A DNA stretch of 64,000 nucleotides from Bacilli bacterium (GTDB taxonomy: Bacteria > Bacillota_I > Bacilli_A > RF39 > UBA660): the NCBI GenBank assembly GCA_017626405.1, contig JAGAIS010000006.1, forward strand, positions 7,100 through 71,099. The letters are read 5' to 3'. A program made the position numbers and the translations under genes. Under the pieces are notes generated by a model, which was not told the DNA's origin, made no database searches, and was given only the letters and a program-made list of their open reading frames with translations. Every line of letters begins with the position of its first letter. The stretch's first letter is position 1. This document shows positions 7,412 to 12,681 of this stretch, in pieces.

Positions 7412-8302
7412 ATGAATACAAAAATAGATGAATTTATCGAATATATAAAAAAAGAGAGAAATTATTCCGATTATACAGAAACTAATTATACAATTGATTT
7501 AGATAATTTTTCAGAATATATAAGCAAAAAGAAAATAAATTATAAAAGCATTACTTATAAGCAGATTACTGAATATATTAAATACTTAAAAATAGAAAAG
7601 AATTTAAATTCAACAAGTATAAATAGACATCTATCCTCACTTCGAAGTTTTTATAATTATTTAATAAGAATAGGAGATGTCGTTAATAATCCATTTAATC
7701 TAATAAAAGGTCCTAAAAAAGCAATTAAATTACCCAATTATATGAAGTATAATGAATTTGAAGAAATGGTCAATTCTTGTGATAACTCGGATTTAGGAAT
7801 TCGCAATAGAGCAATTTTAGAGACTCTTCTTTCGACGGGAGCACGAGTAGGGGAAATAAAGAATGTAAAACTCTCTGATATTGATTTTTCCAATCATGAG
7901 ATAAAAGTATTAGGGAAAGGTAATAAAGAGAGAATATGTTATTTTAACGATCATACAAAAGAGGCATTAAGAAATTATATTGATAACTCGCGCTTAAATC
8001 TATTAGGAGAGAAAAAATCCGATTATCTATTTATAAATCATATCGGTGGTCACTTAACTGATAGAGGTATTAGATTAATAATTGATAATATTATAAAAAT
8101 TAGTTCTATAAATACAAAAGTAACTCCACATACTTTCCGACATACATTTGCTACGATGCTATTAAATGAAGGATGTGATTTAAAAAGTGTTCAAGAACTT
8201 CTTGGACATGTCAATTTGAGTACAACTAGTATATATACTCATGTTACTAATGATCGTATAAAAGAAATTTATCTTCATACTCATCCTAGAAGCAAAAAAT
8301 AA
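7412..8302 (+). CDS. XerC/XerD-family tyrosine recombinase
   Basis: N-terminal SAM-like core-binding domain (IDEFIEYIKKERNYS..T...Y..DL..F). Catalytic R (TGARVGE), HxxR (HTFRHTFAT), and H/Y (LGHVNLSTTSIYTH). Start moved from 7349 to ATG 7412 to remove the overlap with the upstream gene. Confidence 0.85.
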   Translation: MNTKIDEFIEYIKKERNYSDYTETNYTIDLDNFSEYISKKKINYKSITYKQITEYIKYLKIEKNLNSTSINRHLSSLRSFYNYLIRIGDVVNNPFNLIKGPKKAIKLPNYMKYNEFEEMVNSCDNSDLGIRNRAILETLLSTGARVGEIKNVKLSDIDFSNHEIKVLGKGNKERICYFNDHTKEALRNYIDNSRLNLLGEKKSDYLFINHIGGHLTDRGIRLIIDNIIKISSINTKVTPHTFRHTFATMLLNEGCDLKSVQELLGHVNLSTTSIYTHVTNDRIKEIYLHTHPRSKK

Positions 8303-9213
8303 TTATTAAAAATATCATCATCGACAAAATATAGTACATTATCTATATTTGTATATGTATCCTTAATAGAAGAGTTTATTGCATAGGTAATCTCTTCTTT
8401 TATTGTCTTACTGTTTATATCAGTAAATATGCTATCCGTAAAATTTAAAACAAGTGATCTATCGATAAATTCATAGTTTATCAATTCAGTTTCTTCATTT
8501 ATAAATTCGACAAAATTCGTGTTATATGTAGTAGAACTCTTTAATTCATTGATAATAATTTCAATCTTTTCATTCTTATCATCAGTGATTTTGGTTATTG
8601 GTATATAATATAAAAAATCATCAATGGTTGCAGGATAATATATTGTTACTTCCTTTAAATTATTAATAGAATTAGAATTAAACTCCTTATTTATTTTAAA
8701 ACTTCTATCGAGAACTTCAGGTAGAACTTTATTATTATATTCTATCTTATTTAATATATTATTATTTACTTTTATCGTAATTCCATTAATCCCTTTTATT
8801 GAAGTTAAACTATAAACAATAGCTTCGATCATTTTCTCTTCTAAATAATTCTCGATATTCAATAATTCTTTAGAGAAATTTAATACTAATATTCCATTTT
8901 TTATGTGATAATCAAGCAATCTAGTATTCTCGGGAATAGGAGCTAGAAAACCACTTCTAAGTTTATAACTTAATAAATCATTTTTAGTCATTAATGATAT
9001 TTTTTCATTGATTAAATCATATGTGTTAGTCGATTTAACTTGGATATTCACTCTTGATACATAATTATTATTGTCAAATAGATAAATATCAGTTTCATTT
9101 GTATTTATTGCTGTAATATAGTCTTCTTTTTTAGGAAATAAAAATAATATTTGTACAACTAATATTACTGCTAAAACTATTCCAATATTTTTTAGTATTT
9201 TTAGTTTTAACAT
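8281..9213 (-). CDS. gerM: GerM-like sporulation/germination protein (two GerMN-type domains)
   Basis: N-terminal TM/signal anchor. Repeated pattern IP..T.LL...I.NGILVLNFS.E........E..MIEAIVYSLTSIKGINGI.I.VN, typical of GerMN domains. GAGGTGA SD. Confidence 0.55.
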   Translation of the reverse strand: MLKLKILKNIGIVLAVILVVQILFLFPKKEDYITAINTNETDIYLFDNNNYVSRVNIQVKSTNTYDLINEKISLMTKNDLLSYKLRSGFLAPIPENTRLLDYHIKNGILVLNFSKELLNIENYLEEKMIEAIVYSLTSIKGINGITIKVNNNILNKIEYNNKVLPEVLDRSFKINKEFNSNSINNLKEVTIYYPATIDDFLYYIPITKITDDKNEKIEIIINELKSSTTYNTNFVEFINEETELINYEFIDRSLVLNFTDSIFTDINSKTIKEEITYAINSSIKDTYTNIDNVLYFVDDDIFNNYFLLLG

Positions 9214-9243: not shown

Positions 9244-9274
9244 CAAAAAAATAAGTCGCATAATAGCGACTTAT
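9244..9274 (-). terminator. rho-independent terminator of gerE
   Basis: Stem ataagtcgc/gcgacttat directly after the gerE stop, followed on the minus strand by a T-run. Confidence 0.55.
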
Positions 9275-9480
9275 TATATTTTTAATTCATCCAATTTTAC
9301 AAGTTCTATAACAGCTTGATAGCGAGTATTAACTTCTAATTTTTGAATTACATTAGAAATATGATTTCTAACAGTTTTTTCACTAATATTAAGTTTGCTA
9401 GATATTTCTTTTGTGACATATCCTTCGATTAATAGATTGAATATTTCTCTTTCTCTAGTGGTAAGAATACTTTTATTCAT
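9274..9480 (-). CDS. gerE: GerE-type LuxR-family HTH regulator
   Basis: 68 aa. TTREREIF.LL..G..TKEIS..L.ISEKTVRNHISN..QKL.V..R.QAV.EL closely parallels B. subtilis GerE. Start moved to the ATG 5 nt after GTGAGGA. Confidence 0.8.
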   Translation of the reverse strand: MNKSILTTREREIFNLLIEGYVTKEISSKLNISEKTVRNHISNVIQKLEVNTRYQAVIELVKLDELKI

Positions 9481-9543
9481 AACTATCCTCACTTTCACAA
9501 TTATTCATTATATAATATGAAAAAAGGAGAGTAGGAGTGAATA

Positions 9544-10041
9544 TTATTCAAACTTTACTGTACAATAATAATTCCCATCTAATTCAGAATTTACATATAC
9601 AATTATGTCATTTGCCAGTGAATTAGATTCTTTTGTGTTAGCTAAGACTATTTTGATATTATTATCTTTAATTTGAACAAAAAAATTTTTATTAAATTTA
9701 TCAACGAGCTCTTTTTCTAATTTTTCTTCAATCGATTTATTATTGTTTAGGTTTTTTATTTGTTCATAAGCTTCATTTTTCTCTTGTACAGTTTTACTGC
9801 TACTTAAAAGAATTTCTTGTAACAATTTAGTGCTTTCTAAATGTTCTTCTTCTTTCTGTACACGCATTGCTGTAATGATTTCGCTTTCACTAATGGATGT
9901 ACTTTCAGCAGCTTCTTCTTTTTCACTAGTGTTATTAAAAACTAGATAATCACTATCATTAGGTATAGCTATATAATAAATAGCAAGCACTAAAATAATA
10001 CTAGATAATGTCAAAAACCACAACTTAGATTTATTAATCAT
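9544..10041 (-). CDS. spoIIIAH: SpoIIIAH-like protein
   Basis: The N-terminus KSKLWFLTLSSIILVLAIYYI parallels SpoIIIAH K..VWLLT.LS..VVLSVYYI. An acidic linker follows, then the EK.EAY......L helix and a C-terminal beta region ending V.F. GGAGG SD. Confidence 0.6.
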   Translation of the reverse strand: MINKSKLWFLTLSSIILVLAIYYIAIPNDSDYLVFNNTSEKEEAAESTSISESEIITAMRVQKEEEHLESTKLLQEILLSSSKTVQEKNEAYEQIKNLNNNKSIEEKLEKELVDKFNKNFFVQIKDNNIKIVLANTKESNSLANDIIVYVNSELDGNYYCTVKFE

Positions 10042-10301: not shown

Positions 10302-12344
10302 ATGAAAAAGAATTTAGTAGTAATTCAAGAGGAAATAAGCGATTGTGGTGTTTGTTCATTATTATCAATTATTAGATATTATGGAGGAAATGAAAGCTTA
10401 GAAAATCTTAGAATTGACTCACTAACGACAAAAGATGGAGTAAATGCTTACAATTTAATAGAGTGTGCTAAAAAGCATGGTTTCGATGCAAAAGGTATAA
10501 AATCTTCGTTAAATGAAATTCATATTCCATGTATTGCTCATATTAATATAAATGAATCATTATCGCATTTTATTGTTATTTATAAAATAACTAATAGTTA
10601 TATTATGATAATGGACCCATCTAAAGGAATGAATAAGATTAGTTTAAGCGAATTTAAAAAAATGTCATCGAATATTTTTATAGAACTAGTGCCAAAGTAT
10701 AAGTTTAGTTACAAAAAAATACGTAATACATCGGAGTTAAAATTTAAAAGTGTAATAAAAAAATATAACCATTCTCTTCTTAAAATAATCATCCTAAATA
10801 TAATATTTATCATACTTACACTTATATCTAGTTCCTATATTGAAATACTTAATTATAGAGATAATTTTTTCATTCTAAGTATATTTTTTATAATAATAAA
10901 CATACTAATTAATCTATTGTCATATTCTATTGATTCATCTGTGCTCATATTAAATAATAAAATTAATAAACAATTACTATTTGAATTTCTTTCTCATATA
11001 TTTAAACTTCCTTTAAAATATATCCACATAAAAGATAAAAACGAGATAATTAAAAGAGTAGAAGAAATAGAAATTATTAATAATCTTATGTCAAACACAA
11101 TTATCAATTCATTATTAAACATAATGGTTATAGTATCAATTATAATCATTGAATGTTTTTTGTTCATATTTAATTTAATCCCAATATTATTTTTAATTAT
11201 ACTATCATTTCTTATTACCATCCTATCTTTAAAAAAAATCAAATCATTTATTAATGAATCGATAGTTAATTCAACTAATTATAAAAGTTGCTTAATAAAT
11301 TACATAAGTAATATTAATAGTATATATCATTCTAACTCGACAAATATTTTCTTAAATATTTTAAATGATAAACTAAAGAATTATTTTGATACTGACTTGA
11401 ATAGCAATAGATATATTTCTAAAATAAAACTATTAAAGTCATCTATATCGACTACATTTATTCTTTTAACGAATCTAATTTTAATCTATTCTATAATTAA
11501 TAACGATTTATCTATATCAATAATTATTATAATAAATTATCTTAATAGTATATTATCTAACACTATCGATAATTTAACTAATACAATTCCAAGTTTTTAT
11601 TATTGTAAAAGTATATTGAATAAGGTCAATGAATTTTATAATATAGAAGAACTAAATAGTAATAATAAAGAAAATATCAATAATTATGATATCGATATAA
11701 ATAATTTGTATTATGAATATAATGAGTTTAATAAGCCAATAAAAAATTTAAACTTGAGTATTAAAAGTGGAGAAAAAGTATTAATAAAAGGATCTAGTGG
11801 ATGTGGAAAATCAACTCTTTTTAAAATATTGACGAAAGAATATCTTGATTATAGAGGATTTATAAGTTTGGGCAATAATTCTATTAAAAATTTAAGTTTC
11901 TCTCATATTGCAAACATAATATATTATTCTTCTCAAGATGAATATATTTTTATCGATACAATAAAGAATAATATTACTATGCATAACAATTATTCTGAAT
12001 CAGAAATCAATAAAATAATAAGTATTACTGGTTTAGAATTAATAATAAATAAAAAGTCTTTTGGAATCAATACATTCTTATATAGTGGAGGAGAAGAATT
12101 AAGTGGTGGCGAAAGACAGCTTATTTTGCTTGCGAGAGCACTAATCAGTAATAAAAGGATTATTATATTAGATGAAAGCTTATCAGAGATAAATGAAGAC
12201 TTAGAAGATAGTATTATTGACAATATTGTAAATTACTATCAGGATAGAACTATAATATATGTGTCACATAGAAGTAATAAAAATTATCCGTTGAAAACAA
12301 TAAATGTGGAAGAAAGGAGTATAAATGGAGATTCGAGAAAATGA
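10302..12344 (+). CDS. bacteriocin-type ABC exporter with N-terminal C39 peptidase domain
   Basis: C39 motifs: Q-x5-C (IQEEISDCGVCS), His (SHFIVIY), Asp (IMIMDPS). About 6 TM helices. NBD with Walker A GSSGCGKST, signature LSGGERQ, Walker B IIILDE and H-loop VSH. GGGAG SD. Confidence 0.9.
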   Translation: MKKNLVVIQEEISDCGVCSLLSIIRYYGGNESLENLRIDSLTTKDGVNAYNLIECAKKHGFDAKGIKSSLNEIHIPCIAHININESLSHFIVIYKITNSYIMIMDPSKGMNKISLSEFKKMSSNIFIELVPKYKFSYKKIRNTSELKFKSVIKKYNHSLLKIIILNIIFIILTLISSSYIEILNYRDNFFILSIFFIIINILINLLSYSIDSSVLILNNKINKQLLFEFLSHIFKLPLKYIHIKDKNEIIKRVEEIEIINNLMSNTIINSLLNIMVIVSIIIIECFLFIFNLIPILFLIILSFLITILSLKKIKSFINESIVNSTNYKSCLINYISNINSIYHSNSTNIFLNILNDKLKNYFDTDLNSNRYISKIKLLKSSISTTFILLTNLILIYSIINNDLSISIIIIINYLNSILSNTIDNLTNTIPSFYYCKSILNKVNEFYNIEELNSNNKENINNYDIDINNLYYEYNEFNKPIKNLNLSIKSGEKVLIKGSSGCGKSTLFKILTKEYLDYRGFISLGNNSIKNLSFSHIANIIYYSSQDEYIFIDTIKNNITMHNNYSESEINKIISITGLELIINKKSFGINTFLYSGGEELSGGERQLILLARALISNKRIIILDESLSEINEDLEDSIIDNIVNYYQDRTIIYVSHRSNKNYPLKTINVEERSINGDSRK

Positions 12345-12465
12345 ATTATGCACGATAACCGGTGGAGCTATAAAGATTGCTGGCTGGTTAATAGGCGGTG
12401 GAATATTTACACTTGTTGTAGGTATTATTGATGGATTTCTTCGACCATTAACATGTCATAAATGA
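12325..12465 (+). CDS. double-glycine-leader peptide A (46 aa; predicted 32-aa mature peptide)
   Basis: Absent from the ORF track because it is shorter than 60 aa. AAAGGAG SD 5 nt upstream; the start lies 20 nt inside the ABC gene. Sequence MEIRENELCTITGG|AIKIAGWLIGGGIFTLVVGIIDGFLRPLTCHK. The leader fits E(-8) L(-7) I(-4) GG(-2,-1). Confidence 0.75.
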   Translation: MEIRENELCTITGGAIKIAGWLIGGGIFTLVVGIIDGFLRPLTCHK

Positions 12466-12617
12466 GCGGAAAAGAATTATATTTAATCGTGGCAGGTTCT
12501 TCTAAAATTTCTGGAACTCTTCTAAATTCAGTCAGTAAGTTAATAAATACTCTATTGGACTTTGGAAGAGTTATAGGAACATCAATAAGATACTTAATAT
12601 CTGGAAGATCATGTTAA
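12462..12617 (+). CDS. double-glycine-leader peptide B (51 aa; predicted 39-aa mature peptide)
   Basis: Absent from the ORF track. Its ATG overlaps the peptide A stop (ATGA). Sequence MSGKELYLIVAG|SSKISGTLLNSVSKLINTLLDFGRVIGTSIRYLISGRSC. The leader fits S(-11) E(-8) L(-7) I(-4) A(-2) G(-1). Confidence 0.7.
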   Translation: MSGKELYLIVAGSSKISGTLLNSVSKLINTLLDFGRVIGTSIRYLISGRSC

Positions 12618-12618
12618 T

Positions 12619-12647
12619 AAAAAAGGACTTGTGTCCTTTTTTATTTT
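12619..12647 (+). terminator. rho-independent terminator closing the exporter-peptide unit
   Basis: Stem aaaaggac/gtcctttt, loop ttgt, then a T-rich run; begins 2 nt after the peptide B stop. Confidence 0.7.
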
Positions 12648-12653
12648 AAACTA

Positions 12654-12681
12654 TTAACAAATTTGCAATATATGATATAAT
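12654..12681 (+). promoter_or_regulatory. sigma-A-like promoter for cca (TTAACA-16-TGaTATAAT)
   Basis: TTAACA at 12654-12659, a 16-nt spacer containing TG, TATAAT at 12676-12681. Confidence 0.45.

Follow-up and report, generated by a model that had tools for sequence, protein, structure and literature searches.

Class IIb bacteriocins such as lactococcin G, plantaricins EF and JK and carnobacteriocin XY are encoded by two adjacent peptide genes, carry double-glycine (GG)-type leaders and leave the cell through an ATP-binding cassette (ABC) exporter with a C39 peptidase domain. Both partners contain GxxxG helix-packing motifs, a hydrophobic peptide being combined with an amphipathic, cationic one, and the loci are strain-variable accessory loci with an adjacent immunity gene. 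Such loci usually have a patchy, strain-specific distribution. In the membrane-active animal peptides distinctin and halocidin, a single interchain disulfide joins two different short helices; these peptides are eukaryotic, evolutionarily unrelated and no more than a functional analogy here. Classic class IIb members contain no Cys, and the first class IIb peptide with a disulfide was gallocin A, in which the bond is intramolecular, closing a helical hairpin with two Cys per peptide (PMC10100652). In its subgroup, which includes brochocin C, thermophilin 13 as well as ABP-118, disulfides matter and a surface thioredoxin-like protein helps (PMC10100652). Here we describe a class IIb-like locus that differs in having one conserved, co-evolving Cys at the C-terminal end of each peptide. 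It consists of an exporter gene followed by pepA and pepB and lies in a 64,000-nucleotide stretch, hereafter the window, of contig JAGAIS010000006.1 (positions 7,100 to 71,099; assembly GCA_017626405.1) from a Bacilli bacterium of lineage RF39, UBA660. From comparison with its relatives, the best explanation, to which we give about an even chance, is that PepA and PepB form a class IIb-type exported heterodimer linked by an interpeptide disulfide.

The peptides of the window agree with a preliminary description of the locus, which had predicted a hydrophobic mature PepA of 32 amino acids (aa) with the motifs GWLIG and GIIDG and an amphipathic, cationic mature PepB of 39 aa (2 Lys, 3 Arg and 1 Asp) with the motif GRVIG. 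Both were recovered from the sequence and the list of open reading frames (ORFs), and the described span, 12367-12614, begins exactly with the first codon of mature PepA and ends exactly with the Cys codon of PepB. Each mature peptide has one Cys only. The placement of both Cys two to four residues from the end does not apply to PepB, in which Cys is the very last residue. The hydrophobic moment of PepB has a maximum of 0.65 over 18 residues, and in an AlphaFold2 model PepA is one helix. With one Cys each and single-helix models, an intramolecular disulfide is impossible, as had been stated, and a bond could only be intermolecular. The Cys had also been regarded as no standard feature of class IIb, and the literature searched agrees, as it reports only intramolecular disulfides (PMC10100652). 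No paper linking two-peptide bacteriocins with an interchain disulfide was found in that literature.

Close relatives were collected by word-based searches, followed by a profile of 31 PepA sequences and then by a PepB profile. The PepA profile led to 1389 protein clusters in public data and the PepB profile to 281 representatives at the 50% identity level, and about 160 genomic loci were retrieved for locus-by-locus comparison. The order exporter-PepA-PepB was found in every locus with a complete copy of the region, so that two distinct peptide genes stand adjacent, as in class IIb, throughout the roughly 160 loci. In more than 150 genera, each peptide keeps one invariant GxxxG and an equally invariant C-terminal Cys. 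In PepA the spacing G-x3-G-x6-C occurs in 144 of 147 sequences, and GxxxGxxxPxxC is present in all 120 best database relatives. In PepB the spacing G-x3-G-x11-C occurs in 137 of 146 sequences and in at least 133 of the best 150 cluster representatives. The family consensus is F-x-x-G-(V/I)-(I/V)-D-G-(Y/F)-x-R-P-L-x-C for PepA and SGTLINS..K....L(D/E)LGRxLGSAIRR......C for PepB, and basic residues flank both Cys in the family alignments. Both Gly of each motif are invariant, accompanied by Asp (GxxDG) in 90% of PepA relatives and by Arg (GRxxG) in 83% of PepB relatives.

Conservation of the Cys and GxxxG positions among homologues, which the preliminary description had proposed as a check, is therefore strong. 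Its statement that both partners carry GxxxG stands for GIIDG and GRVIG, whereas GWLIG (mature PepA residues 6-10) is not conserved among relatives. Its statement of exactly one Cys per peptide holds for 112 of 119 PepA and 115 of 139 PepB relatives, the remainder having additional internal Cys. The fixed distance from GxxxG to Cys is, in these alignments, far above chance. One could object that the small ORFs, or the positions of the Cys, arose by chance in AT-rich DNA, since the reading frames are short and neither window peptide matches Pfam. The thousand and more PepA clusters, the PepB representatives, the invariant motifs and the constant gene order refute this, and we regard it as practically excluded.

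Evidence for a connection between the two Cys comes from their joint presence and loss. PepA and PepB were paired per locus, with a few parsing artefacts corrected by eye, giving 160 curated pairs. The C-terminal Cys is present in both peptides of 153 pairs and in neither peptide of seven, and no pair is genuinely discordant (Fisher p = 2e-12, with relatedness ignored and no phylogenetic correction). The Cys-less pairs belong to five genera (g4, g41, g138, g87 and g56) and one unplaced ENA contig. Since other members of g41, g87 and g56 retain both Cys, at least three losses are nested within Cys-bearing genera, and the number of genera involved points to five or more separate events. In the ENA contig (L080), PepA reads GVLDGFLRPLK with Thr for Cys and PepB ends before the Cys position. 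Two loci looked like exceptions, and each can be explained. In one, a Cys-bearing PepA is followed first by a short PepB-like gene that lacks the Cys and next by a complete PepB that has it. The other (L056 of genome G161, minus strand) has TGA in place of the codon for the invariant second Gly of PepA (GVID-stop-YSRPLVCRK), with the Cys codon in frame; this TGA may reflect a nonsense mutation, recoding or an error in sequencing. The notion that the Cys-less pairs are decaying pseudogenes was rejected, because the exporter and accessory reading frames of these loci are open and read-through of stop codons restores no Cys. The pair can apparently work without Cys, and a lone unpaired Cys seems not to be tolerated.

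Joint loss is the pattern to be expected of a disulfide between the peptides, although another shared dependency would fit too. Judged from the alignments, it is close to certain that the two Cys act together. The interpeptide disulfide that the preliminary description had thought conceivable gains support from this concordance, and its alternative of homodimers does not, as joint gain and loss is not what homodimers or independent roles predict. One Cys per peptide would in principle allow A-A and B-B homodimers, or each Cys could have a role of its own. Yet if the roles were independent, losses in at least five lineages would not be expected to be strictly joint, without a single one-sided loss among the 160 pairs, and we consider it very improbable that each Cys acts alone. 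Two genomic contexts (L069/L077 of genome G088, and L081) have two tandem PepA/PepB pairs behind a single exporter. One pair has both C-terminal Cys; the second is shortened, lacks both, and has a PepA Cys inside the GxxxG motif (GVFCG). In another locus (L027, genome G007) a 436-aa ORF interrupts pepA, leaving the remnant GYLRPLSCN upstream of an intact pepB.

How might the two Cys come together? The charges of PepA GxxDG and PepB GRxxG are complementary. Where PepA lacks the Asp, PepB lacks the Arg in 7 of 14 pairs, as compared with 17 of 121 otherwise (p = 0.004), and in one pair (L152) both charges are swapped, GIIKG occurring together with GEGVG. The top mutual-information pairs between the peptides gather around the two motifs and follow a positive slope. 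This slope, which is suggestive only, agrees with parallel packing and with the Cys offset (PepA +11, PepB +16). The AlphaFold2 model of PepA, from a 70-sequence alignment, has a predicted local distance difference test score (pLDDT) of 83; in it, residues 14-39 of the precursor are helical and residues 40-46 form a non-helical tail. The modelled helix stops just before Arg-Pro, and the seven-residue tail carries the Cys. A natural in-frame PepA-PepB fusion, P0268 (101 aa), retains both double-glycine leaders, from which a C39 peptidase could presumably still free both peptides. When folded, the fusion gave two helices (pLDDT 67), with the PepB part helical to three residues before the terminal Cys. 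On these models the reach from motif to Cys in PepA would be about three helical and four extended residues, roughly 17 Å, and that in PepB twelve helical residues, roughly 18 Å. These rough estimates are compatible with the two thiols coming together if the motifs pack in parallel.

We therefore favor a direct interpeptide disulfide as the most likely mechanism, while putting it near the point of balance. The transporter would cut the leaders after GG in PepA and AG in PepB and export the peptides. Once outside, the two helices, PepA's hydrophobic and PepB's amphipathic and cationic, would pack side by side and in parallel, G-x-x-D-G of PepA against G-R-x-x-G of PepB, with an Asp-Arg contact. 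Such packing would place the PepA Cys, on its short proline-kinked tail, beside the PepB Cys at the helix end, and the two could then form the disulfide, yielding a covalent heterodimer that would act in a membrane. The Cys may be lost only together because an unpaired reactive Cys would be harmful.

Several points weigh against this proposal. Seven pairs in intact operons lack both Cys, so that a covalent link is dispensable. Correlated loss speaks for functional coupling rather than for a direct bond, and a shared metal site, a modifying enzyme or a third partner would be equivalent in this respect. The signal from mutual information is weak, carries no phylogenetic correction and includes top pairs that lie off the trend. 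The hosts are gut anaerobes, in which spontaneous oxidation is unfavorable. The idea that a dedicated oxidase was lost along with the Cys was not upheld, as the thioredoxin-like genes described below are kept in four of five Cys-less genomes. As for the bacteriocin part, the window holds no immunity or accessory gene and no ORF between pepB and cca, and the operon is a core single-copy trait across the whole family, unlike known class IIb loci.

The source genome does encode proteins that could act on extracytoplasmic thiols. Two genes in tandem encode thioredoxin-fold proteins, each with a signal peptide and anchored in the membrane at the C-terminus, with the motifs WCGNC and TCPHC, and a third paralogue of this secreted family is located on contig C2. 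The family was found in 30 of 32 related genomes checked, four of the five Cys-less genomes included. These sequences show a capacity for extracytoplasmic thiol chemistry but do not tie it specifically to the peptides. The source genome lacks VKOR; DsbB was not searched for. The thioredoxin-fold proteins also enter the alternative in which the two Cys are coupled without being bonded to each other, by jointly binding a metal ion, by sharing a thiol-modifying enzyme or by contacting a common third partner, for which a receptor, the PepC-like membrane protein described below or a thioredoxin-like oxidoreductase would be candidates. Concordant presence and absence of Cys is compatible with any shared dependency, and the basic residues flanking both Cys favor a reactive thiolate. 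The leaderless PepB-like ORF, with a Cys at the x11 spacing in about 15 of about 24 loci, makes thiol partners of PepA other than PepB conceivable. But no modifying enzyme lies in or beside the operon in any of the roughly 160 loci, PepC is missing from most genomes including the source genome, and for Cys held at a fixed spacing from motifs that seemingly pack together, direct contact is the simplest explanation. Coupling of this indirect kind is thus unlikely, though not negligible.

The exporter, pepA and pepB form a compact three-gene unit between a divergent sporulation cluster and cca-dnaD-nth (Table 1). The exporter matches Peptidase_C39 (6e-29), ABC_membrane and ABC_tran in Pfam, and TIGR01193 in NCBIfam at 5e-81, under that model's cut-off. 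It aligns end to end with the peptidase-containing ABC transporter PCAT1 (4ry2; E 7.6e-72) and over its full length with ComA (E 3.5e-64). In the alignment to PCAT1 the catalytic Cys, His and Asp motifs DCG, HF(I/V)V and DP are kept, so the exporter has all that characterizes this transporter group, namely an N-terminal C39 domain with its triad, a transmembrane domain and a nucleotide-binding domain. Its 3' end overlaps the start of pepA by 20 nucleotides (nt), and an AGGAG ribosome-binding site lies 8 nt upstream of pepA. Residues E7, G13 and G14 of the PepA leader are invariant or nearly so among 31-70 relatives. The ATG of pepB overlaps the stop codon of pepA (ATGA), an arrangement that indicates translational coupling. 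The PepB leader ends in AG at an alignment column where relatives carry GG, and we infer cleavage after AG. Double-glycine leaders and a dedicated C39 transporter are thus found together, as in class IIb, with cleavage predicted from the sequence, and PepA and PepB are the sole double-glycine-leader peptides found in the genome of 1.25 Mb and 28% GC. A terminator-like hairpin after pepB, unflagged by a consensus terminator scan, probably closes the three-gene operon. With a near-consensus promoter-like site directly after the hairpin, cca is probably transcribed apart from pepAB.

Table 1. Positions of the operon, its neighbors and related features. Positions are those of the window unless a locus is named.
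Feature	Position	Strand	Remarks
gerM	8281-9213	minus	sporulation cluster
gerE	9274-9498	minus	sporulation cluster
spoIIIAH-like gene	9544-10041	minus	sporulation cluster
Peptidase-containing ABC exporter (PCAT)	10302-12344	plus	680 aa; N-terminal C39 peptidase, transmembrane domain, ATPase domain
pepA	12325-12465	plus	46 aa, from ORF list; precursor MEIRENELCTITGG followed by AIKIAGWLIGGGIFTLVVGIIDGFLRPLTCHK
PepA double-glycine leader	12325-12366	plus	MEIRENELCTITGG; fits E-L-x-x-I-x-G-G
Mature PepA	12367-12462	plus	AIKIAGWLIGGGIFTLVVGIIDGFLRPLTCHK; grand average of hydropathy (GRAVY) 1.16; helix then tail LRPLTCHK
PepA conserved GxxxG (GIIDG)	12421-12435	plus	mature residues 19-23; from relatives' alignment
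PepA Cys30 codon TGT	12454-12456	plus	6 residues past the motif's second Gly
pepB	12462-12617	plus	51 aa, from ORF list; precursor MSGKELYLIVAG followed by SSKISGTLLNSVSKLINTLLDFGRVIGTSIRYLISGRSC
PepB leader	12462-12497	plus	MSGKELYLIVAG; ELxxIxAG
Mature PepB	12498-12614	plus	SSKISGTLLNSVSKLINTLLDFGRVIGTSIRYLISGRSC; predicted amphipathic cationic helix, net charge +4
PepB conserved GxxxG (GRVIG)	12564-12578	plus	mature residues 23-27; from relatives' alignment
PepB Cys39 codon TGT	12612-12614	plus	final residue; 11 residues past the motif's second Gly
Terminator-like hairpin	12620-12646	plus	AAAAAGGAC-TTGT-GTCCTTTTT then T-run; read by eye from sequence
Promoter-like site for cca	12654-12681	plus	TTAACA-16-TG-TATAAT; score 11/12, TG extension (extended -10)
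Tandem thioredoxin-fold genes	G000:C5:218.9-220.4 kb (L052:683-1246, 1315-2112)		outside the window
Third ORF (PepC-like), examples	L048:5153-5320	plus	
	L019:4828-5004	minus	
	L037:4840-5004	minus	
	L039:4852-5004	minus	
Third ORF (PepC-like), about 20 further loci			e.g. L171, L101, L094, L106, L093, L131

The relation to class IIb is also visible in the PepA profile matches. Window PepA scores 15.4 bits (E 0.012) against TIGR03949, the lactobin A/cerein 7B family, under its cut-off of 21.5 bits. Among its relatives, 68 of 70 match this model at E <= 0.01, the best at 6e-9, and some are already named lactobin A/cerein 7B by NCBI and JGI. The match spans the leader and the part where the helix begins, which is rich in Gly, and excludes the conserved DG(Y/F)xRPLxC tail. 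PepB has no match in Pfam or NCBIfam, and window PepA only sub-threshold ones. A search of PDB sequences with the peptides gave matches at the leader level only. The earlier assignment to class IIb therefore stands in the anatomy of peptides and exporter and in the GxxxG motifs, and falls short in the lack of an immunity gene in the window and in the operon's status as a core trait that is inherited vertically. What would be new against known class IIb systems is the conserved, co-evolving pair of C-terminal Cys and the occurrence of the operon as a core single-copy trait across a family. Placement in the gallocin A subgroup does not follow from the presence of Cys, as each peptide here has a single Cys and a single modelled helix. 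Two other kinds of system were considered and rejected. A two-component lantibiotic or sactipeptide, a type with Cys/Ser/Thr-rich core peptides and modification enzymes at the locus, does not fit, as the neighbors here are gerM, gerE, spoIIIAH, cca and dnaD and no LanM or radical SAM enzyme is found at this or at related loci. A double-glycine pheromone of the ComC/BlpC type does not fit either, with no histidine kinase or response regulator near the operon or in related loci; the nearby gerE-type gene is part of the divergent sporulation cluster and not of the operon.

In place of the adjacent immunity gene of classic class IIb loci, the relatives offer candidate immunity ORFs in a minority of loci. 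A third small ORF, here called PepC, follows pepB in about 24 of 163 loci. It is leaderless, has an N-terminal membrane helix and no Pfam match, and its C-terminal half is PepB-like (G-x-x-x-G-T-Y-x-R...). The immunity peptide of gallocin A, GIP, structurally mimics the bacteriocin peptides (PMC10100652). By analogy with GIP, the third ORF is a plausible candidate for an immunity factor or antagonist that would sequester PepA by mimicry. This PepB-like ORF and the secreted thioredoxin-fold proteins parallel GIP and the thioredoxin-like helper of gallocin A. Outside the genus of the window, a 110-160 aa single-pass membrane protein without Pfam match lies between the exporter and pepA. In these genera it stands in the position of a ComB/LcnD-type accessory protein, of which the window, unlike the PCAT1 and ComA systems, has none. 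The slot before cca is variable among relatives and empty in the window. In L021, L023, L024, L025 and L049, of the same genus, it holds a 53-aa two-helix membrane ORF and a second ABC transporter (573-603 aa) without a C39 domain, in L001 a 100-aa two-helix membrane ORF, and in L042 and L044 other genes. Tblastn searches of the source genome with the relatives' PepC, accessory protein, 100-aa ORF and 53-aa ORF gave no match. Immunity through a missing receptor was also considered; UppP, the receptor of lactococcin G, is present in the genome, and the idea is unsupported for that receptor.

The distribution of the operon is not that of a typical bacteriocin. An even sampling of the order, 301 genomes in all, showed the PepB gene in 289 genomes and in 126 of 127 genera, almost always in single copy. 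In a class-wide sample it was present in 50 of 50 members of the family, and about 350 sampled Bacilli genomes of other families gave one strong match and three weak ones that covered the leader only. Within the genus of the window the operon always lies between spoIIIAH and cca, reading gerM-gerE-spoIIIAH, operon, cca-dnaD-nth, with the sporulation genes divergent; in another relative it adjoins rpsU-yqeY-yabP-yqfD. It is retained although the genomes of the lineage are reduced to 0.6-1.6 Mb. By comparison of these genomes, the operon is a vertically inherited, core single-copy trait of a lineage of small-genome gut Bacilli. Two public bins labelled Muribaculaceae (L002, CAZKFB010000032.1) and Phocaeicola vulgatus (L003, CAVIQT010000011.1) also contain the locus, in AT-rich Bacilli DNA that includes cca-dnaD-nth, and this is probably binning contamination.

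It is possible, if on the improbable side, that the pair is not a weapon in competition and that PepA and PepB form a conserved heterodimer particular to this lineage, secreted or in the membrane, whose role is physiological, for example in cell-cell signalling, in sporulation-linked sibling killing, or in an envelope or host-interaction function. Such a role overlaps with the class IIb-type heterodimer that we favor, since the Cys chemistry may be unchanged, and the two estimates are not to be added. The near-universal single-copy occurrence in the order, the near-restriction to the family, the conserved chromosomal position and the retention despite genome reduction all favor it, as do the high conservation of the mature-peptide core and the failure to find an immunity gene in the window or in the rest of its genome. 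On the other hand, the operon has no sensor kinase or regulator, and the GG leader, the GxxxG motifs and the combination of a hydrophobic with an amphipathic cationic partner are the architecture of pore-forming class IIb peptides. The TIGR03949 matches of PepA relatives, and the immunity-like small membrane ORFs or additional ABC transporter directly downstream in some relatives, also speak for a bacteriocin. A combination of both ideas, in which a disulfide-linked heterodimer would be a universal single-copy trait serving a core function such as sporulation-linked sibling killing, envelope or host interaction, with the PepB mimic as its membrane-bound antagonist, is a somewhat more doubtful suggestion.

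If the interpeptide disulfide is true, no covalent heterodimer would precede PepA/PepB among two-peptide systems of the class II bacteriocin type, and the bond would be a natural handle that fixes the register and orientation of GxxxG helix pairing, which have been debated for class IIb. Hundreds of natural variants, including the Cys-less pairs and the charge swap, make these hypotheses directly testable with synthetic peptides. For a bacteriocin, it is unusual that a two-peptide export system should be kept in about 96% of the genomes and in over 120 genera of gut bacteria with reduced genomes. Whatever the chemistry of the Cys, such retention suggests that the function of the system is central to this uncultured lineage.

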